Source of the DNA: a virus
DNA length: 64,000 nucleotides
IMG/VR virus record: IMGVR_UViG_3300006037_000005
Span: 62,599-126,598 of that record
Strand: one strand, 5' to 3'
Shown: in pieces, positions 4,555 to 29,577 of the stretch
How the letters are laid out: the number at the start of each line of letters is the position of its first letter
Numbering within the stretch: the first letter of the stretch is position 1
The notes under the pieces: model-generated
Databases searched by the model: none
Told to the model about the DNA's origin: nothing
Seen by the model: only the letters and a program-made list of their open reading frames with translations
Position numbers and translations under genes: made by a program

Positions 4555-4800
4555 TTAGCAAAAATAATATCTGTTGTTTTCCTCTCTTATTATTTTCTGT
4601 GACGCAAGTTTTTTTAAAGATAAATCAGTTACAATCTTTTTATCTTTTCCAAAAAGATCCTCAATATCTGAATCTGTGAAATATTCTTTCCCTTTGAAAC
4701 AGATTTGTATATCCTCTGGGGTTGGTGATTCTTTCAAGATTTTAAAAATGCCACTTTTGTATTTTATTGAATCACCAGAGTTTGAATTCTTCTTTGCCAT
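4555..4800 (-). CDS. small hypothetical protein, possibly winged-helix
   Basis: 81 aa ORF abutting the helicase start. Confidence 0.6.
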   Translation of the reverse strand: MAKKNSNSGDSIKYKSGIFKILKESPTPEDIQICFKGKEYFTDSDIEDLFGKDKKIVTDLSLKKLASQKIIREENNRYYFC

Positions 4801-13435: not shown

Positions 13436-14455
13436 TTAATCAAAAATGCCATATTCCTCAACAACACCATTTTCATCAAAGATTTCATAATAGCCTTTTT
13501 GGCCTTCATAATAGTCTATCGTTTCGAAGATTATGTGATTAGAATTATCATCAAATCCATATGTTTTGAAAATACCATGTTTCAGACCATTTTTGTAAAC
13601 ACCAGATATTTTGATTTCTCCAGAATTGAAATAGACAGTGTTCCTTCCATCAAGAACACCGTTGTTGTAAGTCATGCTTGAAACAATGCAACCATCTTCA
13701 TCAAATTTCTTTGCTACACCGTGTATTTTCGAATTCTCATTCAAAACGAATTCAAATTTCAATTCACCATTTGTGTGATAAAGTCTGATTGTTCCCTTTA
13801 CATTGTGGTTACCATCTTCAAAATCAGATGATGCCAATTCTTCTTTATACGCTGTACGTATTTTGTCACGAATCCTGTGTACCCTTGTTTTTACAGCACC
13901 TTCGGTATTAAGTTCGTATTTTTCTTTTATCTGAGTATAATCATTTTGTGAGAAAATCGCATCTTTAAAAAATGTTAATTTATCTTCCTCAAGATTTTCA
14001 ACAATGTTAAGAACTCTATTGTATTGTTTATCGAAACTGTTATGTAAAAGTTCACAACACTCCACAGAATTCATTGAATCATCTTTATCTTTATTGATGA
14101 TGTCTAGTAGATCATTCGAATCTTCAATATCATCGAAGACGTTTAATTTTGAGATTGCTACAACTTTAGCTTTTGCAGATTTGTTGTAAAGCATTTTAGA
14201 AAAATTTTGCGAAAGAGTGTAGATGTAAGATAAGAAAGATTTATCATCTACGAAAGTGTAATTTTTGTTGGAATGGACCTTTATGAAGACCGTCTGTGCG
14301 ATTTCTTCAACCAAGGCTGAATTTCTAAGAATGTTGTTTGAGGCTGACTTTACTATCGGTAGACATATTTTGTAAAGTTCATTGAAATTTTTTTCACTAC
14401 GGTTTTCGAAATATTGTTTTGCAACAGCCTGGATTTTTAAAGATTTTGGGTTCAT
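13436..14455 (-). CDS. ECF-type sigma factor fused to C-terminal MORN-like (YwqK/MORN_2) repeats
   Basis: region 2 (EEIAQTVFIKV...FLSYIYTLSQN), region 4 (EGAVKTRVHRIR), then Y..NG/LDG/KHG beta-hairpin repeats. Confidence 0.8.
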   Translation of the reverse strand: MNPKSLKIQAVAKQYFENRSEKNFNELYKICLPIVKSASNNILRNSALVEEIAQTVFIKVHSNKNYTFVDDKSFLSYIYTLSQNFSKMLYNKSAKAKVVAISKLNVFDDIEDSNDLLDIINKDKDDSMNSVECCELLHNSFDKQYNRVLNIVENLEEDKLTFFKDAIFSQNDYTQIKEKYELNTEGAVKTRVHRIRDKIRTAYKEELASSDFEDGNHNVKGTIRLYHTNGELKFEFVLNENSKIHGVAKKFDEDGCIVSSMTYNNGVLDGRNTVYFNSGEIKISGVYKNGLKHGIFKTYGFDDNSNHIIFETIDYYEGQKGYYEIFDENGVVEEYGIFD

Positions 14456-14528: not shown

Positions 14529-15653
14529 TTAAGAATTTGTTAAGAAATCAGCTGGAGTATAAACTTCATATCCAATGGAGAAAATATCTTTTATGATAGA
14601 TTTGAATTTGTTGTATCCAAGTTTTTGTATTTCATCTGAATAGACGTGATATAAAGGGTTTTCAAAATATTTTTCGGCATTAGAATATCTAAGTATATCT
14701 TCTTTTTTATCTGAAAGTATTTTATTGGATTTCAATATATCAAAACGTTTTTCAGTCAAAAAATCATCGATATTTGATATAAAGAAACCGAATTTTTCTT
14801 TTACCTTATCAACATTTGCCTTGCTAGTAGTCATACCGAACAACAAGTAATAATCCTTGTTATAGGATGTTCTAGAGATCTGAATGCTATAGCAAAGATT
14901 TTCGTCATATCTGAATATTTTGTAAAGTGGACTATTTAAGCCATCAGAAAAATAATCACAAATGAAAGATGAGAGATAATGATAACTTGATATTTTGTTG
15001 GTTAAAAATAATATTGGATAGAGGTCATCTGATTCTCCGATTCTAATGAAATCCGATTCATTAGATGGCCTTCTATCAGAAAGATCAAATTCGGTGAAGG
15101 ATTTTTTCTCAAAATTGGTCTCTAAATTTTTTGAAACATTTACTACTGAAGATGGATTTTCAAATATTGTTTTTAACCATTCATCGATTTTTGGTTTTGT
15201 GCAAGATCTTATATCTTCTATAGAACCTATTGGCATGTAATCACTAAAAACCTTCCTGTGAACATTCATCAACAGATTACCAAATGGTGAATCTGTTGAA
15301 TCATAATATTCTTGAATTATTATGTTCTTTTCTTTTTCTATAACTTCCTGAGAGAATTCTAGATTCAATATCCTTTTAAGAATTTCTTCTTTATGAAATG
15401 ATAGTTTATCTTCGAAACCTTTAAAATGGAAAACTATCTGTTCAGGAGAGGTGTAAGCATTCCATTCTATAAAATCTTTTTGTAAATCATCAAAGATATC
15501 ATTGAGGCTTTCACATATCAAATGTTCACAGATGTGAGAATATCCTCTAAAACCATAATACTCAACAGAGGAAGAACCATTATAAACTATCCAAAGAGAA
15601 GATAGATCATTATTAGATTTTATGTTTATGATATTAGAAAGAGCAGAATCCAT
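14529..15653 (-). CDS. M16 family zinc peptidase (insulinase-like)
   Basis: inverted zinc motif HICEH, NAYT, EK.II.QE, G..S.L...R...LCY. Confidence 0.88.
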   Translation of the reverse strand: MDSALSNIINIKSNNDLSSLWIVYNGSSSVEYYGFRGYSHICEHLICESLNDIFDDLQKDFIEWNAYTSPEQIVFHFKGFEDKLSFHKEEILKRILNLEFSQEVIEKEKNIIIQEYYDSTDSPFGNLLMNVHRKVFSDYMPIGSIEDIRSCTKPKIDEWLKTIFENPSSVVNVSKNLETNFEKKSFTEFDLSDRRPSNESDFIRIGESDDLYPILFLTNKISSYHYLSSFICDYFSDGLNSPLYKIFRYDENLCYSIQISRTSYNKDYYLLFGMTTSKANVDKVKEKFGFFISNIDDFLTEKRFDILKSNKILSDKKEDILRYSNAEKYFENPLYHVYSDEIQKLGYNKFKSIIKDIFSIGYEVYTPADFLTNS

Positions 15654-15676
15654 GTTTTTCTATATATAACAAAAAT

Positions 15677-16279
15677 CTATCTTTGAATAGGTATGAATTG
15701 TGGTTCACCATTTTCTATGGTGAAAGAACCATATGGTAAAGCGAATTCTTTCACATCTTTTACATCTTCATACTTCACTGGTATGCCAAATTGTAAAAGT
15801 AAAGTATAAAGATTCGTAGCTGTTACATCAATAAGTGTTCTATCTTCCTTATATTCCACCTTGAATGCTATTTTATCTTCATCTATATCAACACCAGAAT
15901 TGTGTAAAGCAAGGAATACATCTCTTACAGCTAAACAGAATTTTTGTTTGTCTGTTTTATCACCATCTTTCTCGATATCAAATATATCTTTTATAATAAG
16001 TGAAACGGTTGCATTGAGTTTTTCTATATCAAAATTGGCTATGATCTTCTGTTGGTGAAAATTTCTAGCATCTTCAATATTATCAAAATTTGTTGATAAC
16101 ACTGGATATATTTTAACTATATGAGATTCTTTATATTTAGCAACTTTATCCACAAGATCTTTAAAATCTTGGCAGATTGTTATAAGATTTTTCGTTGCAC
16201 TATCAGATGTCTGATCAGATAAAATAAGACTTGTTTTTTTCGTGAAATAAACTACGTATTCTGGTTCTTTAAATTCCAT
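15677..16279 (-). CDS. hypothetical protein
   Basis: 200 aa ORF. Confidence 0.7.
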   Translation of the reverse strand: MEFKEPEYVVYFTKKTSLILSDQTSDSATKNLITICQDFKDLVDKVAKYKESHIVKIYPVLSTNFDNIEDARNFHQQKIIANFDIEKLNATVSLIIKDIFDIEKDGDKTDKQKFCLAVRDVFLALHNSGVDIDEDKIAFKVEYKEDRTLIDVTATNLYTLLLQFGIPVKYEDVKDVKEFALPYGSFTIENGEPQFIPIQR

Positions 16280-16280
16280 T

Positions 16281-16547
16281 TTAAATATTATTTTCTATTT
16301 CTTCAATAATTATATCGAGATCGTAATCATTATCGAGATCGTAATGGTATTTCTTCTTTGTGGCATCTGGTATTTGATAGACTTCAAAATTCTCTACATC
16401 TATGCAGATGGATTCAGATTCCGAGTCCTCATCATCAAAGAAGCTAAAACAATCTCTGTTAAATCCAATGTTTATAAGTCTATCTTTTAATTTGATTAAA
16501 AGATTTGGATCTGCCTCTTTTATTAGAACGAACAATTTTTGTGCCAT
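16281..16547 (-). CDS. acidic hypothetical protein
   Basis: ORF packing. Confidence 0.6.
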   Translation of the reverse strand: MAQKLFVLIKEADPNLLIKLKDRLINIGFNRDCFSFFDDEDSESESICIDVENFEVYQIPDATKKKYHYDLDNDYDLDIIIEEIENNI

Positions 16548-16550
16548 ATT

Positions 16551-16973
16551 TTATTGGAGAGTGTTATTTAAATCACAATTGGTTTTAATTAAAGAATCTA
16601 AACTTGAAATCTGATCAAGTTTCTTTTGTTCATACATTTCCTTTATTCTAACCATAGCATAACCACCAAGGTTCAATCTCTCTTTTATGGAGAAAGATGG
16701 TGAAGTTTCTATGAAATTTACTGAAACATCTCTACCATTTAGAACACCTATTTTGACATGGATGAATGAATCAGATTTCTTGGTTGATATAACAAAAGTG
16801 TCGTTTGTTTGTATTATGGTTGAATCTGGATCATTAACAAGGCTCAATATTTTAAGGAATATTGAGTAATCCTCCTTGTTTGTGGTTCTTTGGAAGTCTG
16901 TTTTTTGCAATCTTTTTTCATTGAACAGCTGATACCAAAGTTTGACAAAATTCAATTTTATTTTTCTAAACAT
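16551..16973 (-). CDS. hypothetical protein
   Basis: ORF packing. Confidence 0.65.
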   Translation of the reverse strand: MFRKIKLNFVKLWYQLFNEKRLQKTDFQRTTNKEDYSIFLKILSLVNDPDSTIIQTNDTFVISTKKSDSFIHVKIGVLNGRDVSVNFIETSPSFSIKERLNLGGYAMVRIKEMYEQKKLDQISSLDSLIKTNCDLNNTLQ

Positions 16974-17024
16974 TTTCTTTTTTGTTTATTTATATTTTGT
17001 AACACAAATGGTTACAGAATTGCG

Positions 17025-17411
17025 TCAGATATATCGTAAACAATCAATATCGTGCGTACTGAGATATGCTTTGAAGGATGGATCATTATCTATTACAAAA
17101 ATTATATCATTCTTATCAAAAAGAGAAAATTGCCCAAGGAAATATGTGTTCAATATTAATATTTTTGATTCTATATATGATATTCCGTTTCTCAAGAAAT
17201 GTATATCATCAAAAGGTATATTATTATCTTTCAGTATGAATTTGAATTTATGCTTTAATTCAACATTGAATTCTGACAACATTATTATGTTGAATTTTTT
17301 ATATAATTCTATCAGCAACGATTTGAATTTCTTATTTATATCATAAAAAAATTCTCCACTTTCTAATATTATATGTTTAAACACAATATTAGAATCAACA
17401 ACAAGCAACAT
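17025..17411 (-). CDS. hypothetical protein, possibly a degenerate HAD-like fold
   Basis: N-terminal LLVVD and late FVIDND resemble HAD motifs I and IV. Confidence 0.4.
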   Translation of the reverse strand: MLLVVDSNIVFKHIILESGEFFYDINKKFKSLLIELYKKFNIIMLSEFNVELKHKFKFILKDNNIPFDDIHFLRNGISYIESKILILNTYFLGQFSLFDKNDIIFVIDNDPSFKAYLSTHDIDCLRYI

Positions 17412-17426
17412 AAAAATTCTTTTAGG

Positions 17427-17633
17427 CTATTTTTTCTTTATTTTGGCATAAACCTCTTTCTTGGAATGAGAAAGCCCATTGCTAACAATTGTACATTTGT
17501 CTAGGTGAAGGTGTGGTTTTATCTCTCTATATTTTGTGTCGGCATCTTTGTCTGAGCTAAGTAATTTTACAATATTCTTAAATTCATCTTCTGAAATTTC
17601 AGAAGATATTTCCAACAATAATTTATACATCAT
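17427..17633 (-). CDS. hypothetical protein
   Basis: ORF packing. Confidence 0.55.
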   Translation of the reverse strand: MMYKLLLEISSEISEDEFKNIVKLLSSDKDADTKYREIKPHLHLDKCTIVSNGLSHSKKEVYAKIKKK

Positions 17634-17648
17634 TTTTATTTATGTAAT

Positions 17649-17681
17649 AAAGCCACCAATGAATAATTCATTGGTGGCTTT
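17649..17681. terminator. intrinsic terminator hairpin downstream of the vWA gene
   Basis: inverted repeat aaagccaccaatgaat / attcattggtggcttt. Confidence 0.8.
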
Positions 17682-17687
17682 GATTTA

Positions 17688-19994
17688 TTATAATTTTATT
17701 TGTTTTTCTGATAATACGAAATTCATATCAAGATCTAGACCATCAATCCTCATAGAAAGTTTAGAATTTTCGATTTCTGAGAATTCTGGAAACCATTTCC
17801 TTGAGAGGATCTGAGAAAATTTCATAACAGATATTTCATTCATTAGTTCCTTCTTCATGATGTTTACATCTTTCCTATAAAGATTTATCCAATCACCAAG
17901 AATTTGGCTCTTGGTTTTTTCATCAAATTTAGATAAGACTTCCGAAGTGGATTCTTTTTTAAACGAATCTATAGTGGGCTTCATCAAAGATTCAGTTATT
18001 TTTAATGATTTACCATCTTCTATGCTTTTCATAACATCCTCAACTTTTGGCAAACTTGAGCATTTTGCTATTTTAACCTCCAAAGAAAGTGCTGTGTAAG
18101 TATCCTTAGTTTCCTCTTTAATGGTTTCTGGACTATATCCATTGAATTGGGTAACACCAATTGATTCTAACCACACCTCTGCATCAGCACCATACTCTTT
18201 AATAAAAGATTCTGAAATCTTCTTGTTATCAAAAACTACTTTGTCGTAATAACCAAGAACTTTATTCATTGCCTGCATTTTCAGTAATTCATAAGAAAGC
18301 TGGCCCAATTTTGTGGCTGAAATTGAATTGACTTGTTTCCTGTTTACTATCGGCAGAGATTCTAAATCCAATATAATAAAAAATGTTCCTGTTTCAAAAT
18401 CAGTATCTTTCTCTGTATCTGATTTATATTCAACACCATTTGAGGTCAAGAATTTGAGATCATTAGCTGTACAAGAAATAGGTAATTTCTGAACATTCAA
18501 AAGACCATCTTTCAAAATGGTGTAATTTCTGTAGATAAAAGAGGGTAACTGAATTAAACCAAAATCGTTTTTTGGTAATTTAACCACACCATCATATCTT
18601 ACCCTAACAGAAATATTGGCTCTATCTTCGTTGTATACAAAATCTTTTACATTGTGGCCAACAGTTTTATCATAGACAAATTCAGCTTTAGAATCTGCGA
18701 TTTCATCCATTGTGGCTTTCATATCTGAAAGATTCTTAACATCTTTCAATTTAGAAATATCAGATTCAGTTACTTTTGTATTAACATCAGATCTTTTTGC
18801 ACCAATTCTGTTGTATACAAAGTCTTTATGCCCAGGATAAAATAAAATCGTTTCTGAATCAGAGAGATAATTCAACAATGATAAAACAGAAAATTGATCC
18901 GCTTTGATCTGAATCTTTTCTTTTGTTACAAAAGGCAAGACCTCGTTCCCAAAAAGTATAGATTTTAAACGATCTCTGAATTCATTGAGTTTCTGTTTAC
19001 CATATGAATTTGTATAAGATTTCAACAATTCCTCACAACGAAGTTCCATAAGCAAATCATCAACTTCATCCGTTCTAAATTTATCAGATAGAACATAAGA
19101 GGCTAGCAACAATTGCTCATTCGTAATTTTACCAATTTCTATCGGTGCTTCAAAATCATTAACAATTTCAATAAAATCGATGAAATCGACATTTGATGGT
19201 AATAGAACTTCAGAATTTTGAACAGAATAAATTAGAATTTGGTCATCAATCATAGTCCAAGCTATACCGAATTTTGGTTGTGTGCCGATATTGATGAGCG
19301 TTTTTGAACTTGATAAATTTGAATTTGAAAGTTTTGCATCAAATTCTGGTTCAAAACTTTCAAAATTGGAAGAAAATATTTTATCTCCACCACAAATTTC
19401 AGCCATTTCCTGCATAGCTTTTGTATCAGCATAATAGCCATATTCAACAAAAGTAGAAGATTGTAAAATTGGTACTAGAGATTTCAAGTTATCTCTAACA
19501 TCAGACCAAGAACCTTGGTTATGATAACCATCAGACAAGAAAACCATCGAAAATAGGGAATTCGGTCTATTAACTGAGATTCTTTCAATTATTTCCTTTG
19601 CTATCTTCAAAGGTGAATCAAATGAAGTCAGACCAACTGGTTTTAACCATCTATCAACTGCATCATTAAAATCTTTAAGATCTTTCAATGATTTAATTTC
19701 AACTTCTTCTTTTAGAACACCTGCTTCATTTTTACCAGAAAACCAAACAACGGAAATTGTGTGACCATCTTTCATAACAGATGAAAGTTTGTTTTTCAAA
19801 TGTCTTCTTATGTTAGAAAGTTCTGATGACATAGAACCAGAGACATCGACAACAAAGATGTGATTGATTGGTAAAACATTTGGTTCTGATTTTTGTAATT
19901 GAATTCTCGTTAGAGAGAAATTACTAATTTGTTTTCTTACTACCACTGTTTGCATATTTAAAAATTTGATTTCTTGCTTTATCAAAACTGACAT
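17688..19994 (-). CDS. von Willebrand factor A domain protein (start may be MQTVVV at 19955)
   Basis: MIDAS motif VVDVSGSMS, conserved T, and FLSDG. Confidence 0.85.
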   Translation of the reverse strand: MSVLIKQEIKFLNMQTVVVRKQISNFSLTRIQLQKSEPNVLPINHIFVVDVSGSMSSELSNIRRHLKNKLSSVMKDGHTISVVWFSGKNEAGVLKEEVEIKSLKDLKDFNDAVDRWLKPVGLTSFDSPLKIAKEIIERISVNRPNSLFSMVFLSDGYHNQGSWSDVRDNLKSLVPILQSSTFVEYGYYADTKAMQEMAEICGGDKIFSSNFESFEPEFDAKLSNSNLSSSKTLINIGTQPKFGIAWTMIDDQILIYSVQNSEVLLPSNVDFIDFIEIVNDFEAPIEIGKITNEQLLLASYVLSDKFRTDEVDDLLMELRCEELLKSYTNSYGKQKLNEFRDRLKSILFGNEVLPFVTKEKIQIKADQFSVLSLLNYLSDSETILFYPGHKDFVYNRIGAKRSDVNTKVTESDISKLKDVKNLSDMKATMDEIADSKAEFVYDKTVGHNVKDFVYNEDRANISVRVRYDGVVKLPKNDFGLIQLPSFIYRNYTILKDGLLNVQKLPISCTANDLKFLTSNGVEYKSDTEKDTDFETGTFFIILDLESLPIVNRKQVNSISATKLGQLSYELLKMQAMNKVLGYYDKVVFDNKKISESFIKEYGADAEVWLESIGVTQFNGYSPETIKEETKDTYTALSLEVKIAKCSSLPKVEDVMKSIEDGKSLKITESLMKPTIDSFKKESTSEVLSKFDEKTKSQILGDWINLYRKDVNIMKKELMNEISVMKFSQILSRKWFPEFSEIENSKLSMRIDGLDLDMNFVLSEKQIKL

Positions 19995-20023
19995 CTCCCA
20001 TTGATATATAAAGAAATATTGTT

Positions 20024-20458
20024 ATGTTTTATTCTTTAATACCTTTATTGTTATCAGCCATTTGTTGTTCTGTTATGGATATATGTGTTCATAAATTCAA
20101 AGTTTCAATATTTAGTAAGATAAAAAACGGATTTTGGTATCAATGGTTTGATGGGGGTGATTCTTGGAAAAACAAATATGTTGATAGAATCCCCAAAAAT
20201 GGTTTTGTCAAAATGAAAATTCTCGGTATTATTTTCAACAAACCTGTTCAACTATCAGATTCTTGGCATTTCTTCAAGATGTTGTTTGTCTGTTTCTTTA
20301 TTTTATCGACAATTCTTGAAGGTTATTTTATGTACAATTGTTTCCGACCTGTTGATAATCAATTTTTATATTTTTCAGTCAAATATACCATCTATGGTGT
20401 TCTTTGGAACATTGTTTTTAGCGTATTTTATCGCCACATCCTTAAACTCAGATCTTAA
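20024..20458 (+). CDS. membrane protein
   Basis: hydrophobic helices; SWKNKY and D.WHFFK motifs. Confidence 0.7.
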   Translation: MFYSLIPLLLSAICCSVMDICVHKFKVSIFSKIKNGFWYQWFDGGDSWKNKYVDRIPKNGFVKMKILGIIFNKPVQLSDSWHFFKMLFVCFFILSTILEGYFMYNCFRPVDNQFLYFSVKYTIYGVLWNIVFSVFYRHILKLRS

Positions 20459-20941
20459 TAATTTATTTTGTAGGAAGACTTTAATCTTGAAAACTCAGCC
20501 TTTAACAGTCCCTTCTGGTACATCATATTCATCAGCAAGTTCTTTATATTTATAGCCATCAATTATCTTAAAAAAGATTTCTGAATGTGTTTTGTTTGGA
20601 TAGGATTTTATAAAATCTTCAAGCATTTTGGTGTCGAAATTGTTAACTGTTACACAAGATAGATCCATGGAATTTTCTTGATATGAGATATCAGAACATA
20701 TTGGTGTTTTTGAAGACTTTCTATATCTATCAACAGACATATTTTTCATAACAGTAAAATACCAAGATTTGAAATACCCTTTCTCATCAACATAAGTATC
20801 AAGATATGACAAACATTTCAAGTTGGTATCCTGTATTAAATCTTCTGCTTGATCCCTATCGAAATTGCAAAGTTTAGATGCATATCTTTTAATATAATCT
20901 TTATGGATCTTTACATTTGACACAAATTCTTCTTTCGTCAT
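20375..20941 (-). pseudogene. ECF sigma factor interrupted by an in-frame TGA (20495-20497) in region 4
   Basis: AEDLIQDT.LK and FKSW..TVMKN...D.YRK; GYKYKELA...PEGTVKG*VFKIK continues in frame. Confidence 0.7.
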
Positions 20942-21228
20942 GATTTCGTAAAATGTGTAAATTCAGACAAATAGTTATTGAATTCAATTTTTATGCACAA
21001 TTCTTCATCCTTTGAAACAAAAATAAAAAGAAATGTTCCATCCAAACGATTAAATTCACAATCTTCGTGGCATATATCATATAATTCTAATTCATATTGA
21101 TCAAGGAAATCATCCAAATTTCTGTAAACATCTGATTCATATTTAAATTTTTTTATGGATTCTTGCTCTTGCTTTATAATATCCTTGAACAATTTTTCAA
21201 AATTGAAATATCTGTTGATATTCATCAT
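20938..21228 (-). CDS. hypothetical protein
   Basis: ORF with ATGA overlap. Confidence 0.6.
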   Translation of the reverse strand: MMNINRYFNFEKLFKDIIKQEQESIKKFKYESDVYRNLDDFLDQYELELYDICHEDCEFNRLDGTFLFIFVSKDEELCIKIEFNNYLSEFTHFTKS

Positions 21229-21258
21229 GATGTTTTTATTTCAAAATTCTTAAATAAA

Positions 21259-21285
21259 GATTTGGCTACCATTGGTAGCCAAATC
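21259..21285. terminator. intrinsic terminator hairpin downstream of purZ
   Basis: inverted repeat gatttggctacca / tggtagccaaatc. Confidence 0.8.
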
Positions 21286-21317
21286 AATAAAAATCAAATT
21301 AACTACTAAACTAAATC

Positions 21318-22553
21318 TCAAATCTCAAATCTATCCTCTGTATATTTACCAGTTCCAATCCAACGCATTTTAACATTGGAGAATTCTTTTGAAGATTTTA
21401 TGACAGAATAAATATTTTCTTCTAACCAATCTTTGAATTTATCGGTAATAATATCTGTTCTCTCATTCATATTCCAATCCACATGGTTAGCAAAATTTAC
21501 TGATATGAATATTTTATGTGGTGTTTGATTGAAGATTATTGAATCTTCCAAATTTTTTTTAGAAAATGTTGCAACTCTTCTTGGTAATTTTGTTAAAGTT
21601 GTTAATGATGTTAAATCTTCGTCTGCACCACAACCAAGTCTAACATCTTCCCAAGTTATTTCTTTTTGATCATCATACCAATCACCAGAATATGAATCAA
21701 CCTCCTGATAGTCGTAGTTACCAGATTGAACTTCAGCCCAAGTCAAGAATTTTCTTGAAACAATATCAATATATTTCTTGCTATTGATACGAATCGGAAA
21801 TGTTCTAGTATTTAATGCTATATTGCCAACAACTGTGACAGGCAAAAACATATCATCAAGACCAGCAGAAACAGTCACATTTCTTGATGTGGTATTCGTA
21901 CCAAACAAACCATAGCCATTAGAAAGAGGAAATCCTTGAGCAAGTTCCAACAAACCAGACTGACCTTGGGAAAGTCTCGTTAAAATTTCCCTTGGAACAT
22001 CACAGATAAACTCAGCAAGTTCTGGGACATCTTTAGCCAAAAGTTGATTTTTATCTCTCAGCACACGTCTTGCTCTAGTGCATCCAACACCACTTGATGT
22101 GCTACCAGTTGCATAAGTACCCTTGTGTTCTTCAATGGCTGGTTTACCATCAAAACCATATTTACCTTCTTCATAGAGTCTGTCGATATCTTGAACAATA
22201 GCTGTCATTGGAGAGATACCAATTTTGTTACGAGGGATACCTGTAATTTCAATTTCATTGAAAAATGCTTTCAAATCTATGATGCCACCTTGACCAATAT
22301 ACATTTTTTCGAATTCGTAATGGCGATGTGCATTTGAATTAAATTGTTTATAAACAATTTCTTTGCTACCATTGGCTCTATCGATTACAGTATGTGATGC
22401 TTGTGGTGCAAATGTATTACAAACAAATTGGAATTTACCAACATTTTGCATCGTAATAAAAGAGCCAAGGCTACCTTTGCCTGCAGAACCAGCACATGAA
22501 TCGAGTATTACCGATAATTTACCTGATAAGAAAAATTCGTCTTCTTTTTTCAT
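21318..22553 (-). CDS. purZ: PurZ-like N6-succino-2-amino-deoxyadenylate synthetase (adenylosuccinate synthetase superfamily)
   Basis: GSAGKG (Ser in place of the PurA catalytic Asp of GDEGKG), GSTSSG, RTFPIR, SGDWYDD, TTLTKLPRR.ATFS, and NFAN instead of TKLD. Confidence 0.85.
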   Translation of the reverse strand: MKKEDEFFLSGKLSVILDSCAGSAGKGSLGSFITMQNVGKFQFVCNTFAPQASHTVIDRANGSKEIVYKQFNSNAHRHYEFEKMYIGQGGIIDLKAFFNEIEITGIPRNKIGISPMTAIVQDIDRLYEEGKYGFDGKPAIEEHKGTYATGSTSSGVGCTRARRVLRDKNQLLAKDVPELAEFICDVPREILTRLSQGQSGLLELAQGFPLSNGYGLFGTNTTSRNVTVSAGLDDMFLPVTVVGNIALNTRTFPIRINSKKYIDIVSRKFLTWAEVQSGNYDYQEVDSYSGDWYDDQKEITWEDVRLGCGADEDLTSLTTLTKLPRRVATFSKKNLEDSIIFNQTPHKIFISVNFANHVDWNMNERTDIITDKFKDWLEENIYSVIKSSKEFSNVKMRWIGTGKYTEDRFEI

Positions 22554-22665
22554 TTCTAATTTTTTTGGTGTTTCTTCTATTATTGCTTTACTACATGGGG
22601 GTTTCAATATAAATGGTGTCAAGAAACTTCAGACGTTCCAATGGTAAATAAAGAAAAGGAACAGC

Positions 22666-24501
22666 ATGAACACCAATGATATTAAAATAGGAAAAGAATT
22701 TATTGAAATTATACCGAACCAAGAATATTCCTTGAAGAAAGCATATCTTGGTTTTTATTGCCCCAAATGTTTAAAAGAAAAAACCATATGTTTATTGTCT
22801 GTTTTAAAAGATTATACCAATTCTGTTGGTTGTGGTTGTAGAAAGAAAATAGGGAAGCCTTTTATAAAATCAAAACCATTATCTGAATCAGAATGGGAAG
22901 AAATATTTTCAAAAATACCCATACAGCCTTTGAATTTTAATGATCTTCTTGGTTTTACAATATCGGCTAAAAAACAAATCCCTTTTATTTGTGGTTGTGG
23001 TAAGATTTTTGAATATAATATTGGAAAGATAACAAGTTCCCATACAAAAACTTGTGGTAAATGCAATATAGTAAATCCAAAAGAAATCTCTTACAGCAAC
23101 GGCATTTTGTATAATGGTACTTCTGATTCGATATCTTCAACTTTATCAAAAAATGAAGATTTTATTTGTGGTTGTGGTAATCAATTTAAAGCACCCTTTA
23201 ATTGTGTTGTTTCGGGGAAACAAAAATCTTGTGGTAAATGCAAAATTCTTTCATACCCATCATATATCGGAAAAACATTTGGTAGACTTAAAATTTTAGA
23301 ATTCATTGGATCAAAAGGCAGAATAAATGATCCAAAGAAATCGGAGAATTTCTTCAAATGTGAATGTTCGTGTGGCAATGTAAAAGAAATAACAACATCT
23401 GCAATATTAAGAAATGGATCAAAAGGAAAAATTTCTTGTGGTAAATGTTCAAATGTTGCAAAAGAAATTAGAATGGCTAATCCTTTTCCAGGTTTGCATG
23501 ATTACAAAAAATTGGAACTTTGGTTTGAAACACAATTCATAAAACCAATTGTTCCTATCAATGAATACACAATAAACAAAAACAAAATACCAATGCACTG
23601 TAAATTGTGCGGTGACGATTTTGATACATCTTTATATGATATTAAAAGAGGCAAAATTTTGAGTTGTGGTTGTTTATCAAACAGAATATCTCAAATGAAC
23701 ACCGAAGTTGGAACATTTATAAAAGAACTTGGCTTTGAAATCCAATATGAACATTATCTTGGTGAAAATTTACATTCTGATATTTTTGTTAAGAATAAAA
23801 ACCTTGTGATAGAAATGAACGGAATTTATTATCACAAAGAGGCTACAAGATTAAGTGAGATTAAAAAATTCAATAAAGCAAAAGAAATTGGATATGATTT
23901 TTTAATGTTCTATGAAGATGAATGGAGAGATAAGAGAGATATTTGCAAAAATCTCATTAAACAAAAACTTGGTATAAATTCTGATATTATAAAATTAAGA
24001 CCAAAGGATTGTGAAGTTAGAATTGTGAAATCACCATTGGTTAAAGAATTGTTTGAAAAATTCCATATACAAGGTTACAGACCATCAAGTTTTAATATAG
24101 CTGTCTATCATAAAGATAATCTAATAGCCTGTATGGCAATTAATAGACCATCAAGACAAAATATAAAAGAAGATTATGAAATTTCAAGAATGGTTTGTGA
24201 TACGAAATATAGGGTGAACGGACTTTGGTCTTTTTTGTTCAAATATATTGAAAGAACAAATCTGTTTACTGGAACTATTACAACATTTTCTGAAAACAGA
24301 ATATCAAACGGAAACATATATTTAAATATAGGAATGGTGCATTGTGGTAATGTGAAATCAGATTATTATTGGTGTGACACAAGGAACAGATTCCACAAAT
24401 CTATGATGAGAGGTAAAAATGAAACTTTGATTAACAAAGAAAAAGGCTACCACAAGATTTTTGATTTGGGAAAGAAGAAATTCTCAACAGAGATCTTGTG
24501 A
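22666..24501 (+). CDS. putative homing endonuclease: Cys-rich zinc-ribbon repeats, a PD-(D/E)xK (DUF559/Vsr-like) nuclease and a GNAT-like C-terminal domain
   Basis: many CxCG/SCGxC repeats; DIF...VIEMNG.YYH...FYEDEW; H(I)QG...YEISR; IFD.G. Confidence 0.75.
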   Translation: MNTNDIKIGKEFIEIIPNQEYSLKKAYLGFYCPKCLKEKTICLLSVLKDYTNSVGCGCRKKIGKPFIKSKPLSESEWEEIFSKIPIQPLNFNDLLGFTISAKKQIPFICGCGKIFEYNIGKITSSHTKTCGKCNIVNPKEISYSNGILYNGTSDSISSTLSKNEDFICGCGNQFKAPFNCVVSGKQKSCGKCKILSYPSYIGKTFGRLKILEFIGSKGRINDPKKSENFFKCECSCGNVKEITTSAILRNGSKGKISCGKCSNVAKEIRMANPFPGLHDYKKLELWFETQFIKPIVPINEYTINKNKIPMHCKLCGDDFDTSLYDIKRGKILSCGCLSNRISQMNTEVGTFIKELGFEIQYEHYLGENLHSDIFVKNKNLVIEMNGIYYHKEATRLSEIKKFNKAKEIGYDFLMFYEDEWRDKRDICKNLIKQKLGINSDIIKLRPKDCEVRIVKSPLVKELFEKFHIQGYRPSSFNIAVYHKDNLIACMAINRPSRQNIKEDYEISRMVCDTKYRVNGLWSFLFKYIERTNLFTGTITTFSENRISNGNIYLNIGMVHCGNVKSDYYWCDTRNRFHKSMMRGKNETLINKEKGYHKIFDLGKKKFSTEIL

Positions 24502-24518
24502 TAACCTTTCTGATGTTT

Positions 24519-25536
24519 TTATTGTCTGAATTTTGAAAGTCTCGATTCTGAAATAGATTTCTTTGGTTTTATCTCTCCGTTATATTCATCTATGGTAATA
24601 TCTGTCTTACTACCAAAATCCCCAATAAATGTTTCTTTATCGAAATCCCAATAGCAAACATCGGCATTGTTGATGAAATTATAGAGTGTTCCATCATCGT
24701 ATTTTTGGATGTCAGATTTTTCTATACCACTATATGGTGGTGCATATAGCATAACTTGTTTGTCTGAATTTGTTGATATATTATACCAAACACCATCAGA
24801 TCCCATAGCTTCTTCTATATCACGCTTTGAATCAATATTCCAGCCAGTATCATTCTGTTTTCTATATAATAGATGCATTTCATAGAGATCACCAGAATCC
24901 TCCAAATTAGATTCTGATATTTTACCCAAGTATTTTACTTCTTCTTTCGTCAACAATCTTGAAACAATACTGTCATCAATGTAACCATTATCATCAATAT
25001 AATCGTTCATTTTGTTTAATATTGGTTCTGTTATCCTATTAACTGGCATATTTTTTATTTTTTTTACCAAATCTTGTTGAATTTTTGTAAAATTCATTCC
25101 AGAATTTCTTTCTATCTTTATCATCCATAGTTGATTCTTTAATTTTGCCACCATTTTTATATGCTTCAATCTCTTCTTTAGAAAAATCAGAAACGATTTT
25201 AGACATTTTTGGTGCACCTTCAAGAGAAGTCAATTGATTATCGGAACAATAGAATCTTTCACATTCTTTTGGTGCACCCTGTAGCGAGGTTAATTCGTTG
25301 CGGTCACAATAAAACCTCCAGGATTCTTTTGGTGAACCTTTTAATGAAGTTAATTTATTGTTAGAACAATAAAAAACCCCATCTACAATTCCGAATTGAA
25401 CTGGAATTTCCTTTAATCCTTTATTTGAGATATCAACATACCCATTAACGTCGACTGTTAGATCGTCATTAATTATGTAATTATTGATACCCATTTCATT
25501 AAGCCATACTCGAATCTCTTCTCTGCTTTTTAACAT
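24519..25536 (-). CDS. LRR-family modular protein split by a frameshift near 25050-25090 (ORFs 25039-25536 and 24519-25223)
   Basis: the LRR N-terminal part and the C-terminal part ending ISESRLSKFRQ are offset by one base across poly-A runs. Confidence 0.7.
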
Positions 25537-25557
25537 AATATTTCTATTTTTTTATAT

Positions 25558-25767
25558 TTATCTTCTTGCCACTATTTCAAATTCTTGATCAACATAGTTA
25601 GTACACATACCATGGTTTTTATTAATAAAAATGATCCTATCACCATTGTGTTTATACGGATTTGCATATATACCAGAAGATGCATTCCTGTCTAAATGTC
25701 TTATATCTAAAACAAGATGCTCTATAGTGTAAAGTTGTTTATTGATCTTATGTTTGTAGATATTCAT
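25558..25767 (-). CDS. hypothetical protein
   Basis: ORF. Confidence 0.55.
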   Translation of the reverse strand: MNIYKHKINKQLYTIEHLVLDIRHLDRNASSGIYANPYKHNGDRIIFINKNHGMCTNYVDQEFEIVARR

Positions 25768-25784
25768 GGTTTATCATTTTGAAC

Positions 25785-26288
25785 TCACTCTTTTTTAATA
25801 TCTCTATAGATACCACCATGTTCCTTGTATTCGTGATCTGTTATGGCACACACCACTTTTCTTACTGTATCAAGATCAACCCCTATTTTTCTGCTCAAAT
25901 TTTGCATCTCACTCGTATTGGTTGGTAAATAGACGGGAACAATACCTTTCGAGAAAGCATCCATTGTGTTATTAACTACCATTAACTCCTCTTTGGATAA
26001 ACTAAACAGTGATGTTACACGTTTTGATAGGCCACTTAGTGTGGTAACATATTTTTCATTATGTACGTTCATTGATACCTTTAAGTGTGCTTTGAAAACG
26101 TCTATTAATCGTTCTGTTAAGGAATATAAATCATTAGTCTCTCTAATCCTCTGTTTGAGAGAAACTATATCTTTATCTTTAGATGCTAATTTGCTCTTTG
26201 GGATTTCTTTATAATCTTCTTTTAACATATACATCTGATTCCTCAGTATGTCTGCTAGTATCATCATGTGAAGCTCGTTGTGAGTCAT
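25785..26288 (-). CDS. hypothetical protein
   Basis: 167 aa ORF. Confidence 0.7.
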   Translation of the reverse strand: MTHNELHMMILADILRNQMYMLKEDYKEIPKSKLASKDKDIVSLKQRIRETNDLYSLTERLIDVFKAHLKVSMNVHNEKYVTTLSGLSKRVTSLFSLSKEELMVVNNTMDAFSKGIVPVYLPTNTSEMQNLSRKIGVDLDTVRKVVCAITDHEYKEHGGIYRDIKKE

Positions 26289-26536
26289 GTTTTATTCGTT
26301 ATCAATAACTAATTTTATACCAAATAATATTGCTTTTGCACTCCACTAGCAATTTTAGCGGTGGATATATTACTCCTGCAATCTTTCCAACTCATATCTT
26401 ACCAAAGCCATTTCATCAATAGCCCTAATATGTTCTTCAATTTTTTCACGTTCTTTAATCAATTTGATTACTTCTTCGTTGTTTGTTGCTTTTGTCCAAT
26501 CTATCATATCCGTAAATTTTACTATCTGCTAACAGT

Positions 26537-27226
26537 TCATATAACCCCCCAATTGATATAATATTTTGACTTTTTATGAAATTTACTTGATACGAAATCA
26601 TACTCAATTTTATAAACAAGATTATTACCGAAATCAATATCATATACATTACACACATCTACGAGTCTTTTAAAATCATCATCTATATAAAAATCGTTCA
26701 AAGTGTCCAATAAGGTATCATGGGAATTAATGAACAAATTAATACCAAGAGTCCATCTGAAAACATTTTTTGCTATCAATTCAAACTGTTTTTTGTTTGA
26801 AAATGTAGAATCTATGAAAACATTTTTTATTTTATTTTCTTTTATATAGTTATACAAATATTTATCATATCCATCTTTATCTGAAGATTTCGAAAGATGT
26901 AAAAATGGTTGTAAGATATTTGGTAAATTGCCCATGACACCCATGGATTGGGCAAATTTAGAGGCAATATCTATTTCATTGGGAATGATGGAATCGTTTT
27001 CCAAAATAATCGTGTGTGATTTACCATGGATATTTAAAAAATATCTGTTATCAAAGCATTCGATTATTTTATTGTTATTCAAGAATATTTCCCAATCATA
27101 GTAAGTACCAAAATAAATCCCATCATTTTGGCGTATCAAAATACCACAATCTCCATTAAAATTTTTTTGGCAATAAGCATTTATGATGCTAAGATCCTGT
27201 TCCTTTATAAATGTTTTTAATTTCAT
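26537..27226 (-). CDS. hypothetical protein
   Basis: 229 aa ORF with ATGA overlap. Confidence 0.7.
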   Translation of the reverse strand: MKLKTFIKEQDLSIINAYCQKNFNGDCGILIRQNDGIYFGTYYDWEIFLNNNKIIECFDNRYFLNIHGKSHTIILENDSIIPNEIDIASKFAQSMGVMGNLPNILQPFLHLSKSSDKDGYDKYLYNYIKENKIKNVFIDSTFSNKKQFELIAKNVFRWTLGINLFINSHDTLLDTLNDFYIDDDFKRLVDVCNVYDIDFGNNLVYKIEYDFVSSKFHKKSKYYINWGVI

Positions 27227-27669
27227 ATCACTCCATGATTTAATTTTGTGAAAATGTGTGGTTTCCTTATCATGGTGTTGTTTGCAACACCTTTGATTTT
27301 ATCAAAACCAAATTTCCTATATAATTTTATAAGAGCATCTATATCAGTACCAAAAGAAGAATCTGGCTTTATAAAAGATTTCAATTTATGTTTATCGCAA
27401 AAATCAGAAATTTCTTCCAAAACTTTAGTACCAAACCCCTGTCTTCTATATTCTTCTTTTATTTCTATTAAGCAGATATTTAGAAAATCAGATTTCACAG
27501 AACAATTCAAACACAATGATTGAATAGGATATTTGTTCAAGAGATTGTTCTTTAAGCAAATAGTAGCAAGTTGTATATCATCACCATTATAAAGCATATT
27601 GTATTTCTGCTCTGATTCAGTATGGATGATATTTTCTATTTTCTTTGTCATTGTCTTATGGATTTTCAA
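27223..27669 (-). CDS. GNAT family acetyltransferase
   Basis: EEYRRQGFG acetyl-CoA-binding motif and LY.KFGF. Confidence 0.8.
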   Translation of the reverse strand: MKIHKTMTKKIENIIHTESEQKYNMLYNGDDIQLATICLKNNLLNKYPIQSLCLNCSVKSDFLNICLIEIKEEYRRQGFGTKVLEEISDFCDKHKLKSFIKPDSSFGTDIDALIKLYRKFGFDKIKGVANNTMIRKPHIFTKLNHGVI

Positions 27670-27883
27670 TAATGGCTGTCAAATTTTGTTCAAACCATAT
27701 GGACATCTTATCTCGTGTTGGTGTGTCGTGCACACTAAATTTTATTGCATCATATTTTATATGATCTGGTAGTTTATTATAGCAAGCAACTATACCCTCA
27801 TCGCTTTTTATATTTAAACCAGTTGCATCAAAAATCACATCATGCAATCTATTTAGTGAATCTCTATCAAATTTTGTTACCAT
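27656..27883 (-). CDS. hypothetical protein
   Basis: ORF. Confidence 0.6.
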   Translation of the reverse strand: MVTKFDRDSLNRLHDVIFDATGLNIKSDEGIVACYNKLPDHIKYDAIKFSVHDTPTRDKMSIWFEQNLTAIIENP

Positions 27884-27924
27884 TTTTTATATTTTGACTG
27901 CTACCATTTTTTATATTTTGACTG
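27878..27924. repeat. 24-bp-period tandem duplication spanning a start codon
   Basis: taccattttttatattttgactg occurs twice. Confidence 0.9.
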
Positions 27925-27976
27925 TTACTACTTCTATATAAGGCACTAAATATACCTGCGGACGTTAGCCGTAATG

Positions 27977-28309
27977 TTAAGAACGTCTGTGCTTAATATC
28001 TCCTGACATAGTAGAAATAGAACCACCAACCATATTGCAATCAACATCACCAGACATTGTAGAAATAGAGCCATCAACATCGCCAGTAACTTCAACATCA
28101 CCACTTTGAGTTGAAATTGATTTTACACTTCCTTCAACTGATACCTTGTTGCAAGCGTCTACCTTCAATTGTTCAATATTACCAACAACTGAAATATTAA
28201 TTTCTTTGCTGTCAGGCGTTACATCTTTGCCGTTAATTATGACTTTGCCATTTGTTACTACAATACTATTACCTGAATATGTATTGCCATTAATTGTAAT
28301 TGTACTCAT
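27977..28309 (-). CDS. beta-solenoid repeat protein (SISTMSGDV repeats)
   Basis: repeated V.GSIST.SGDV units. Confidence 0.75.
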   Translation of the reverse strand: MSTITINGNTYSGNSIVVTNGKVIINGKDVTPDSKEINISVVGNIEQLKVDACNKVSVEGSVKSISTQSGDVEVTGDVDGSISTMSGDVDCNMVGGSISTMSGDIKHRRS

Positions 28310-28316
28310 TTTTATA

Positions 28317-28940
28317 TCAAAATTTTCTTGATCCTATATTAAACACTTCTAACTCACCCAGAGATTTAAAAATTGTATTACCAACTTCTACGCTTTTTGA
28401 TATACCATAATGAGAAAATATGAACATCGATGGTATATGTATCTCTAACAGTCTATCAAGAAATTTATTGGTTGGAGTAAGTTGCGTGGTATCTGCGAAA
28501 TGGTGCGATACTGACGAAGGACATTCATGGCTTATAACAACATATGGTTTGTGGGTAGCATAAGATACAGAACATTGTTGCATGTCATAAAATGATAATT
28601 CTTCTCTTTCAAAATAATCAACATCCAATGTTCTAAATATCCTATCTCTTGATTGTGCACCTCTTACGAAGAACATCCCGTTGTGCATACCAAAATCACC
28701 AAGACTGTACTTCGAACCAAGATAATTCAAATCATCATTATTTCCAAACAAAATTTTATTCTTGCTGTTGTTAGTACAATTTTCATGCCATTCATGATCT
28801 TCTCTAAAACCAAAATCACCAAGTTGTACAGTATCAACTCTTTGGTTAGAATGTAGAATATCTTTATAACTTTCTATTGATGAATGACATGATCCTATCA
28901 ATATTGTTTTTTTAATTTCCTTGTATAATCTACCTCCCAT
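28317..28940 (-). CDS. metallophosphoesterase-like protein with degenerate motifs
   Basis: IGSCH, QLGDFG, GNND, SHECP and FSHY correspond to the GDxH, GD, GNHD, H and GHxH positions. Confidence 0.7.
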   Translation of the reverse strand: MGGRLYKEIKKTILIGSCHSSIESYKDILHSNQRVDTVQLGDFGFREDHEWHENCTNNSKNKILFGNNDDLNYLGSKYSLGDFGMHNGMFFVRGAQSRDRIFRTLDVDYFEREELSFYDMQQCSVSYATHKPYVVISHECPSSVSHHFADTTQLTPTNKFLDRLLEIHIPSMFIFSHYGISKSVEVGNTIFKSLGELEVFNIGSRKF

Positions 28941-29577
28941 TTTGTATCAAAAAATCTAAATCTTTTATCATGTCTTTTTCCAAATCAGCCCATGTGCTCC
29001 AATTGTGTGCTGGATTCTTTAATTCGAGATTTGGATAAGTACCTTTGTACTTTTTGATAAAATCTTCCTTTGAAAATCTTGGTTTATGTATATTGTAATA
29101 GATTTTAAGTTTTCTAATATCATCGTTTGATGCATATTCTGATATTTTATTACAAACATCATCAAAATCAAATTCTACAATGTGGCGAAAACCAGGATCT
29201 ACAACCATATTTGTATCTTTCACAAAATTCTGTGAGATTTCCCCATTGTAATATAACAGGATTTTATGATTTCCAATACCCAAATCAAGATAAGATCTAA
29301 AGAATTTCATATTGAATCTATCCTTTTTGTGTTCTTTTTCCATCTCTTTGGCTTTAATATAACAATTCAAAAGCGATTGATCTTGTTCAGATAAGATACC
29401 AGAATTTGCTCCACAACAGAAATATGAAAAACCAAAATCTTCTAAAGGCAGATATGATACTGGTGGTTTTATATCAGATTCAAGCGATATCACATGGTTT
29501 GAATTGTAGTATAAACTAAAATTTTTGTTAGAATTCCAATATTCAAGATTCATTGATAAGCATCTCATATTGCTCAT
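28930..29577 (-). CDS. hypothetical protein
   Basis: 215 aa ORF. Confidence 0.65.
   Translation of the reverse strand: MSNMRCLSMNLEYWNSNKNFSLYYNSNHVISLESDIKPPVSYLPLEDFGFSYFCCGANSGILSEQDQSLLNCYIKAKEMEKEHKKDRFNMKFFRSYLDLGIGNHKILLYYNGEISQNFVKDTNMVVDPGFRHIVEFDFDDVCNKISEYASNDDIRKLKIYYNIHKPRFSKEDFIKKYKGTYPNLELKNPAHNWSTWADLEKDMIKDLDFLIQNGR

Follow-up and report, generated by a model that had tools for sequence, protein, structure and literature searches.

A PurZ-like gene in a large AT-rich phage with a family B DNA polymerase as a candidate for a phage-carried 2-aminoadenine pathway

A Probable PurZ-Class Enzyme in a Large Phage

A 64,000-nucleotide stretch of viral DNA (the window), which forms the second half of the 126,598-base IMG/VR record IMGVR_UViG_3300006037_000005 (label G000), carries a gene for a PurZ-like succino-aminodeoxyadenylate (dSMP) synthase, whose 411-residue product is referred to as P0001. 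On balance, P0001 is probably a PurZ-class enzyme in a pathway carried by the phage itself, by which 2-aminoadenine (Z) would largely or wholly replace adenine in the DNA, as judged from sequence comparison and phylogeny. The parts of this reading differ in strength: that P0001 belongs to the PurZ clade is scarcely in doubt, the conversion of dGMP to dSMP is predicted with good confidence, substantial Z in the DNA of this phage is somewhat favoured, and complete replacement of adenine by Z is put forward as a tentative prediction that may well fail. The enzyme class and the Z pathway are already known; what appears to be new is that the gene sits in large contractile-tailed phages with a family B DNA polymerase (PolB), which is often split, and possibly in phages of ~370 kb, that PurB and a kinase are encoded by the phage, and that the DatZ/MazZ/DpoZ set was not found alongside them.

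The record is a single linear contig with a GC content of 0.300 and was estimated by CheckV to be 60% complete. An earlier reading of the window made from its letters only (the sequence-only reading) had proposed a very AT-rich jumbo phage with PolB; the base composition and the polymerase were borne out, but the word "jumbo" was not, given a contig of 126.6 kb at ~60% completeness and complete relatives of 129–167 kb. P0001 is encoded by a single unbroken minus-strand frame with its ATG at 22553 and its stop codon at 21318–21320. An alternative in-frame TTG at 22622 would yield a protein of 434 residues, with 23 extra residues upstream of the ATG; the ATG is taken as the start because homologues begin there (P0002: 411 residues, 91% identity, 100% query coverage). 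The six motifs to which the sequence-only reading had drawn attention, GSAGKG, RTFPIR, TTLTKLPRR, NFAN, QASHT, and ELAQG, are each present exactly once in P0001 (Table 1).

Residues for Substrate Choice

The specificity residues were mapped from Yang et al. (bioRxiv 2025) and Czernecki et al. (2021) onto an L-INS-i alignment of 30 family, four PurZ, two PurZ0, and seven PurA sequences, with the roles of the Ser-for-Asp exchange, Thr262, N-F-x-N, and the residues contacting the ribose 2'-OH as given in section 8 of Yang et al. and by Czernecki et al. The catalytic Asp13 of PurA is Ser23 in P0001, and this position holds Ser in 30/30 family members, 4/4 PurZ, and 2/2 PurZ0 and Asp in 7/7 PurA; the S14D mutant of phiVC8 PurZ has been described as losing selectivity (Yang et al., section 8). 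Across 267 stored proteins (P0001 and its relatives), the residue after the first Gly of the P-loop is Ser in 210 of the 210 with a readable loop (GxxGKG) and Asp in none, the other 57 being fragments or variants such as GSEAKG. Thr318, equivalent to Thr262 of phiVC8 and Thr273 of S-2L, is Thr in 29 family members and Ser in one, and Gly or Ala in all seven PurA sequences. The N353-F354-x-N356 motif (N294-F295-x-N297 in phiVC8) is kept by 27, 30, and 28 of the 30 family members at its three fixed positions, the corresponding motif being T-K-x-D in PurA and T-M-x-D in PurZ0. Moreover, Leu323 stands at the position of E. coli PurA R303, which contacts the ribose 2'-OH (Leu in 28 family members, Met in two), and Ile256 at that of a Val which crowds C2' and the 2'-OH and is linked to deoxyribose selectivity (Ile in 26, Val in four). 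As well, Trp301 (30/30), Tyr293 (28/30), and Pro253 are kept in P0001 and its family.

As aligned, the residues tied in the literature to the choice of dGMP, deoxyribose, and ATP are all kept in P0001. The view that the protein is PurZ-type rather than PurA-type holds, as seen from the Ser at the Asp13 position, the retained PurZ hallmarks, and the placement in the PurZ crown clade described below. The suggestion that the divergent QASHT and ELAQG segments might indicate an altered specificity is weak, for such variants are the norm of the subfamily and lie outside the residues known to set specificity.

Enzyme Family, Fold, and Phylogeny

P0001 matched the Pfam adenylosuccinate synthetase family PF00709 weakly (35 bits, cut-off 27). 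Its best NCBIfam model was PurZ NF038379 (101.9 bits, E 3.7e-29), which carries the NCBI model type "exception" and was presumably built from classical small-phage PurZ enzymes, and it fell below the cut-offs of the PurA models TIGR00184, NF002223, and NF003295. It also matched PHROG 1211, a family of phage PurZ genes (7e-19). Among solved structures searched by sequence, phiVC8 PurZ (6fm1) was found at 5e-16, Pyrococcus horikoshii PurA at 1.6e-15, and S-2L PurZ at 4e-13. The Pfam, NCBIfam PurZ, and 6fm1 matches stand well clear of chance. An AlphaFold2 (AF2) model built on 21 family sequences, with a predicted local distance difference test score (pLDDT) of 91.4 and a predicted template modelling score (pTM) of 0.90, gave 7odx, 5k7x, 6tnh, and 6fm1 as the top Foldseek matches, followed by the PurZ0 structure 7vf6. 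According to this model, the fold is the short-form PurA/PurZ fold; since the PurZ of S-2L and phiVC8 and the P. horikoshii PurA are all among the top matches, the fold alone cannot separate PurZ from archaeal PurA. Compared with the characterised PurZ enzymes, P0001 has ~70 extra residues in four inserts in total; the insert of ~30 residues after the PIRI strand is conserved in the subfamily, and its K260 and Y261 are invariant.

Relatives of P0001 occur in 63 of 50,697 phage records, of which the best is Flavobacterium phage MaF61 (37% identity); the further phage matches listed are known PurZ phages with 25–29% identity on records of 38–68 kb. A word-indexed search of large protein collections found 428 proteins at E<=1e-3, and the 120 of them that were listed show 40–91% identity and come from contigs of up to 281 kb. 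An exhaustive search gave 913 representatives at E<=1e-3, including 55 at E<=1e-30.

Two trees were built under LG+C20+F+G4, a quick one of 77 rows and a careful one of 42 rows, with long-form PurA as the outgroup. The references were the PurZ of S-2L, phiVC8, SH-Ab 15497, and PMBT28, the PurZ0 of Glenn and FireCastle, the PurA of E. coli and of megaphage LR756503, and archaeal PurA sequences from genomes reached via a 16S primer scan. Redundancy filters reduced 133 family candidates of 380–490 residues to 29 and 83 other matches of 325–470 residues to 33, and these length limits left intein-bearing proteins and fragments out of the trees. The careful tree holds P0001, 13 family members and 14 other matches selected manually, and 14 references.

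Both trees agree in topology and place the archaeal short PurA basal to all Ser-type enzymes, which form one clade in the careful tree (100/100). PurZ0 is the first to split within this clade (99/82), outside the clade that holds P0001 (99/82 and 97/89). The next level is a crown clade of the characterised PurZ and the P0001 family (99/99 in the careful tree; 100 by Shimodaira–Hasegawa approximate likelihood ratio test, SH-aLRT, in the quick tree), and the phylogeny that the sequence-only reading had called for thus sets P0001 inside PurZ and apart from PurA. Within the crown clade, the PurZ of S-2L, phiVC8, SH-Ab 15497, and PMBT28 group at 100/100 and the P0001 family at 100/98, and the interior is a polytomy of PurZ, the P0001 family, and several metagenomic lineages. 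The P0001 family appears to be a new, deep, and well-populated subfamily of PurZ that escapes the curated models now in use. Because the subfamily scores below the NCBIfam PurZ cut-off, surveys based on current models may undercount Z phages.

As a separate observation, the PurZ-like gene is interrupted at a minimum of two sites (>=2) by inteins, with a Hint or intein-splicing domain and a LAGLIDADG endonuclease, in the metagenomic proteins P0122, P0124, P0126, P0134, and P0181, which reach 750–816 residues; intein-bearing family members overall span 730–820 residues.

Partner Genes and the Proposed Pathway

In addition to the PurZ-like gene, the phage encodes a PurB-like adenylosuccinate lyase, a guanylate-kinase-like protein, and a MazG-like nucleotide pyrophosphohydrolase (Table 1), none of which the sequence-only reading had seen, and the Z-genome reading is strengthened because it does. 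The PurB-like gene is the orthologue of MaF61 ORF149. The MazG-like gene overlaps the guanylate-kinase-like gene, and both head the strand leading to the polymerase genes; the MazG-like protein has no detectable likeness to the MazZ/DUF550 proteins of S-2L, PMBT28, phiVC8, and SH-Ab 15497. No replicative polymerase was found other than the family B DNA polymerase, which occupies two adjacent genes, and neither was canonical DpoZ, in a record where PolA was not searched for. The order of the two parts of the family B polymerase is swapped, with the C-terminal part (57851–59044; phrog_1918, and phrog_262 positions 480–838) upstream of the N-terminal part (56303–57847; phrog_2062, and phrog_262 positions 104–502). 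The two halves lie ~25 kb apart in the relatives G031–G040, and MaF61 has a single fused gene of 994 residues in the normal order. The window also encodes a baseplate hub protein and, for DNA transactions, a UvsX-like recombinase, a DnaB-like helicase, SbcD, and RNase H, all consistent with replication and morphogenesis of T4 type.

The pathway that these genes might make up can be outlined as follows. The MazG-like pyrophosphatase would supply dGMP from dGTP, and the PurZ-like enzyme, on the strength of its residues and its phylogeny, would join dGMP with aspartate at the expense of ATP or dATP to give dSMP, from which the phage PurB would release fumarate and form the monophosphate of deoxy-2-aminoadenosine (dZMP). 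The guanylate-kinase homologue, proposed here as the kinase of both dZMP and dGMP, would then convert dZMP to dZDP; guanylate kinase reportedly serves for dZMP. Some nucleoside-diphosphate kinase would convert dZDP to dZTP, and the family B polymerase would place Z opposite T, the outcome being DNA with 2-aminoadenine in place of most or all of its adenine. Candidates for the exclusion of dATP are its use by the PurZ-like enzyme itself (as in S-2L), the MazG-like protein, and the HD-fold proteins.

The co-occurrence of these genes was followed in 80 relatives kept of the 194 from an IMG/VR scan, which comprise 42 members of the subfamily (>=36% identity, contigs up to 256 kb) and 38 small PurZ phages (26–31%); the search covered every family record and, as controls, eight of the small-phage loci, chosen from records of 39–57 kb. 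PurB (Lyase_1) was found in 18/42 family records versus 0/8 small PurZ phages, guanylate kinase in 15/42 versus 0/8, PolB in 15/42 versus 0/8, and a MazG-like orthologue in 12/42 versus 0/8. Conversely, HD_3 was found above the cut-off in two and weakly in five of the 42 family records versus 8/8 small PurZ phages, and PolA in 10/42 (two of them strong) versus 8/8. No searched record carries PolA and PolB together, the 15 PolB-bearing relatives being without a PolA match. Among the eight family records that are at least 90% complete, seven carry PurB, guanylate kinase, and PolB together, and none carries PolA. Those seven complete PolB genomes measure 129–167 kb, five with terminal repeats and six with a MazG-like gene. 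One more complete genome of the same capsid clade, the eighth, also carries a PurZ-like gene. PurZ-negative relatives by capsid were sought as well: a single-protein scan found nothing, and an alignment scan gave 13 loci, five of them new, of which one complete genome had a PurZ-like gene and the other four are fragments, 15–52% complete; a PurZ-negative contrast group did not emerge from these scans.

A second set of carriers (G009, G012, G017, G018, G027, G042, and G046) was also observed, for which CheckV implies genomes of ~370 kb and which have short, weak PolA-type matches instead of PolB; PurB or guanylate kinase was not found in the fragments that represent these genomes.

A wider claim is possible but doubtful, namely that the whole large contractile-tailed lineage, including MaF61 (~70% A+T, 130 to >200 kb, PolB often split), would be fully Z-substituted through dispersed, phage-encoded MazG-like, PurZ-like, PurB, and guanylate kinase genes, with adenine excluded by enzymes other than DatZ, such as a Dmp-like HD deoxyribonucleoside monophosphate (dNMP) phosphatase.

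Points Against a Z Genome and Alternative Explanations

Several observations weigh against a Z pathway in this phage. The PurZ-like gene is unclustered, with PurB 24 kb away and the kinase and MazG-like genes 38 kb away. Since large phages often carry MazG, dNMP kinases, and HD hydrolases, only the link between PurZ and PurB is specific. The 101.9 bits of P0001 lie far under the curated cut-off of 300 of the PurZ model, and the archaeal short PurA model (NF003295) scored nearly the same (91.9 bits, also far below its cut-off). The ~30-residue insert, one part of the ~70 extra residues, lies beside the 2'-position loop. Ala21 occupies the position of phiVC8 F12 (17 Ala, five Phe, three Tyr, and two His in the family) and His357 that of Tyr298 (24 Tyr, five Trp, and one Phe), and P0001 further has Gln51 for Asn, Ser53 for Gly, Asn220 for Tyr, and Lys403 for Pro. 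One relative (G008; 247 kb, 91% complete, flagged as a provirus) is without any partner gene. Finally, in the 127-kb record, which is ~60% complete, HD_3/DatZ had no match at E<=1, DUF550/PF04447, dUTPase, and NDT were not found, and eight DatZ, MazZ, and DUF550 proteins of S-2L, phiVC8, PMBT28, and SH-Ab 15497 compared with it by BLAST and phmmer reached a best E of 0.054.

These absences bear most on the alternative that survives best, although it is unlikely: PurZ chemistry may be present with Z absent from the genome, minor, or variable in it, or the pathway may mainly reshape the purine deoxyribonucleoside triphosphate pools, e.g., by draining dGTP and dATP. Such an outcome would fit a record in which canonical DatZ, DUF550, DutZ, DmtZ, and DpoZ were not found (PolA being outside the search there), as well as the finding that high substitution in E. 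coli needed datZ and mazZ alongside purZ (Czernecki et al.), and the missing HD_3 and PolA are a real difference because 8/8 small PurZ control phages carry both. However, the record is 60% complete and holds two HD-fold hydrolase genes, the PurZ of S-2L itself consumes dATP (Czernecki et al. 2021), the added PurB and kinase suggest a high flux, and the PurZ-like gene is kept across very distant genomes.

As for DatZ, for which the sequence-only reading had proposed a search, only the two distant HD-fold genes turned up in the record, both outside the window (Table 1). The first is the syntenic orthologue, beside the clamp loader, of open reading frames (ORFs) in the relatives G030 and G021, which pass or approach the HD_3 model and match PMBT28 DatZ at 1e-6 and 1e-5. 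Both HD-fold genes are candidates for the removal of adenine nucleotides, and neither is DatZ. With the general HD model, the record offered no more than one ORF at 16 bits; the Pfam result for this ORF was empty at E<=0.01 and at E<=0.1 comprised HD (16 bits) and HD_4 (15.3 bits), each under its cut-off.

Far less probable than a Z-free or partly substituted genome is a PurZ-derived enzyme with a shifted substrate (e.g., GMP or another 6-oxopurine nucleotide) or phosphate donor, whose product would be a purine other than 2-aminoadenine. The subfamily changes near the base and donor pockets (Ala21, Gln51, Ser53, Asn220, Lys403, and, in P0001, His357) and the conserved insert with its two invariant residues could be read in this way, but P0001 keeps every residue that the literature links to selection of dGMP, deoxyribose, or ATP, the base contact at the position of residue 21 is made through the backbone in S-2L PurZ (Czernecki et al.), MaF61-type members have Phe there, and PurB and guanylate kinase fit the known pathway.

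Least probable, and by a similar estimate very unlikely, is an ordinary adenylate supply, in which the enzyme and PurB, as an auxiliary metabolic pair, would turn IMP (or dIMP) into AMP (or dAMP) to feed a 70% A+T genome. PurA and PurB form the canonical AMP branch, the scores of the archaeal PurA model and of the P. horikoshii PurA structure come close to those of PurZ, and true PurA occurs in phages too, because megaphage LR756503 (735 kb) encodes a canonical long-form PurA with GDEGKG, TTGRPRR, and TKAD (locus L011, 1492–2691), the one used as an outgroup; against this stand the Ser for the catalytic Asp in P0001 and all 210 readable P-loops, the replacement of T-K-x-D by N-F-x-N, of the 2'-OH Arg by Leu, and of PurA Gly299 by Thr, a tree that sets the family inside PurZ and apart from both PurA forms, and an accompanying kinase that is guanylate-kinase-like (adenylate kinase was not searched for).

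Comparison with Known Systems

The Z-pathway reading of P0001 can be set beside four kinds of known enzymes. With the PurZ of phiVC8, S-2L, SH-Ab 15497, and PMBT28, P0001 shares the short-form fold, Ser for Asp13, Thr262, N-F-x-N, Leu or Lys in place of Arg303, the residues W252, Y244, and P233, and the crown clade. It differs from them in an identity of just 25–29%, a subfamily of its own, its greater length with four inserts, Ala and His at the positions of phiVC8 F12 and Y298, and a score under the NCBIfam PurZ cut-off. Its gene is not adjacent to datZ or mazZ and occurs in large PolB myoviruses with their own PurB and guanylate kinase, whereas the known Z phages are reported to rely on host enzymes for the PurB and kinase steps (Poubanne et al.; PMC12783734), and natural Z-DNA has been described in siphoviruses and podoviruses with a PolA-type DpoZ or PrimPol (Czernecki et al.).

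The PurZ0 of Wayne- and Ghobes-type actinophages, here Glenn and FireCastle, has the Ser-type P-loop and belongs to the same superclade (100/100); PurZ0 phages, too, are described as lacking DatZ, with other enzymes clearing dATP (Poubanne et al.). Unlike P0001, PurZ0 keeps a GTP-like T-M-x-D pocket, has GSEAKG as its P-loop, and branches outside the crown clade. Archaeal short-form PurA (NF003295; P. horikoshii 5k7x) agrees with P0001 in fold and length class (template modelling score 0.88, target-normalised) and gives similar sequence scores, but its P-loop carries Asp, its nucleotide motif is T-K-x-D, Arg and Gly stand at positions 303 and 299, and it is basal in the tree.

The closest isolate homologue is MaF61 ORF141, annotated as a "putative adenosuccinate synthetase", a member of the same subfamily whose 37% identity to P0001 extends across 98% of the query. 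MaF61 is a 167.8-kb myovirus with PurB, guanylate kinase, an HD hydrolase, and PolB, and it shares 23/186 ORFs with the record (1e-5), among them the PurZ-like, PurB, kinase, and HD hydrolase genes. Unlike the present phage, it has Phe where phiVC8 has F12, and its polymerase is encoded in one piece. In the accessible text of the MaF61 paper, the words "adenylosuccinate", "adenosuccinate", and "restriction" are not used, and the sole "modified" refers to the DNA-extraction method. Because MaF61 is in culture on Flavobacterium sp. B330, the question of Z is directly answerable.

In a search of the available papers, supplementary lists apart, no description came up of PurZ from a myovirus, a jumbo phage, or a phage with PolB, and none of phage-encoded PurB in a Z pathway. 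One paper speaks of over 2000 viruses predicted by PurZ homology, and subfamily members may therefore sit in published lists already. Carriers of the subfamily are widespread in freshwater and other metagenomes, as the 428 proteins and the contigs of up to 281 kb among those listed indicate. If the subfamily is active, the range of Z genomes would come to include large myoviruses whose replication modules are of T4 type, and perhaps phages of ~370 kb; ZTGC DNA would need to be copied by a family B replisome; and the pathway would have an alternative layout, with its own PurB and kinase, no DatZ, and scattered instead of clustered genes. With 70% A+T, the Z:T pairs of such a genome would change the stability of the DNA and its sensitivity to restriction to a degree beyond that of any known Z phage. 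Full replacement throughout the lineage, if true, would be without precedent in two ways: as Z-DNA replicated by a family B replisome, and as a Z pathway independent of host PurB and kinase.

Features of the Record and Neighbouring Genes

Table 1. Positions of the PurZ-like gene, its motifs and flanking signals, and the accompanying genes (window positions unless marked as positions of the whole record).
Feature	Positions	Strand	Details
PurZ-like dSMP synthase gene (P0001)	21318–22553	minus	411 aa; ORF, PurZ model, trees, hallmark residues, AF2/Foldseek
GSAGKG P-loop	22473–22490	minus	aa 22–27; one occurrence; Ser23 at position of PurA catalytic Asp13
QASHT	22389–22403	minus	aa 51–55; one occurrence
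ELAQG	21933–21947	minus	aa 203–207; one occurrence
RTFPIR	21789–21806	minus	aa 250–255; one occurrence
TTLTKLPRR aspartate-loop motif	21576–21602	minus	aa 318–326; one occurrence; Thr318 = phiVC8 T262; Leu323 = E. coli PurA ribose-2'-OH Arg position
NFAN adenine-nucleotide pocket (N353, F354, N356)	21486–21497	minus	aa 353–356; one occurrence; replaces PurA GTP motif T-K-x-D
Promoter-like TTGAAA-17-AATAAT	22579–22607	minus	just upstream of the PurZ-like start codon; consensus match only
Terminator-like hairpin	21259–21285	minus	12-bp stem then T-run; 33 bases past the P0001 stop
PurB-like adenylosuccinate lyase gene	46197–47570	plus	457 aa; Lyase_1 94.6 bits; ASL_C 99.2 bits; NF006764 407 bits (cut-off 446; residues 6–423)
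Family B DNA polymerase, two adjacent genes	56303–59044	minus	only replicative polymerase found (PolA not searched for in this record)
MazG-like nucleotide pyrophosphohydrolase gene	60605–61249	minus	214 aa; PF03819 25.8 and 23.5 bits; phrog_229 57.7 bits
Guanylate-kinase-like gene	61242–61838	minus	198 aa; PF00625 59.9 bits; phrog_1815 98.5 bits; TIGR03263 54.7 bits, under cut-off
HD-fold gene (L226)	record 15874–16473, outside window	minus	phrog_318 "deoxyribonucleoside 5' monophosphate phosphatase" 84 bits; HD motif reads HE
HD-fold gene (L227)	record 25054–25635, outside window	minus	phrog_990, 78 bits

The promoter-like site upstream of the PurZ-like gene is weak evidence because such sites are no commoner in the region than by chance (nine seen, 13.7 expected). 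Similarly, one terminator-like hairpin was found where 1.0 is expected by chance, and its position alone is suggestive. Window positions 1–64000 yielded neither tRNA nor tmRNA genes, and a megablast of window positions 15000–30000 against the 50,697 phage records gave no match to a near-identical phage genome. Two public sequencing runs, from freshwater and aquatic metagenomes, hold the sequence as assembled (Logan) contigs, which cannot show base identity, and no RNA run holding it is listed.

Two genes for C5-cytosine DNA methyltransferases lie in the window, both on the minus strand (4772–5662 and 10970–11992; PF00145 at 116 and 154 bits), and a Dam-type methylase (PF02086) had no match in the whole 127-kb record. 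The PurZ-like gene does not stand beside datZ, mazZ, or DUF550, and its neighbours are sigma-factor-like and nuclease-like. Downstream, a small ORF is followed by a sigma-70-like gene (20495–20941, minus strand; Sigma70_r2, 44.6 bits), and a second sigma-70-like gene occurs at 13436–14455 (minus strand) with a weak phrog_1740 match. The divergent upstream neighbour (22666–24501, plus strand) encodes 611 residues with many CxxC pairs in the first half and a weak match to REase_MTES_1575 (E 0.006), and its product may be a homing or restriction-like nuclease.

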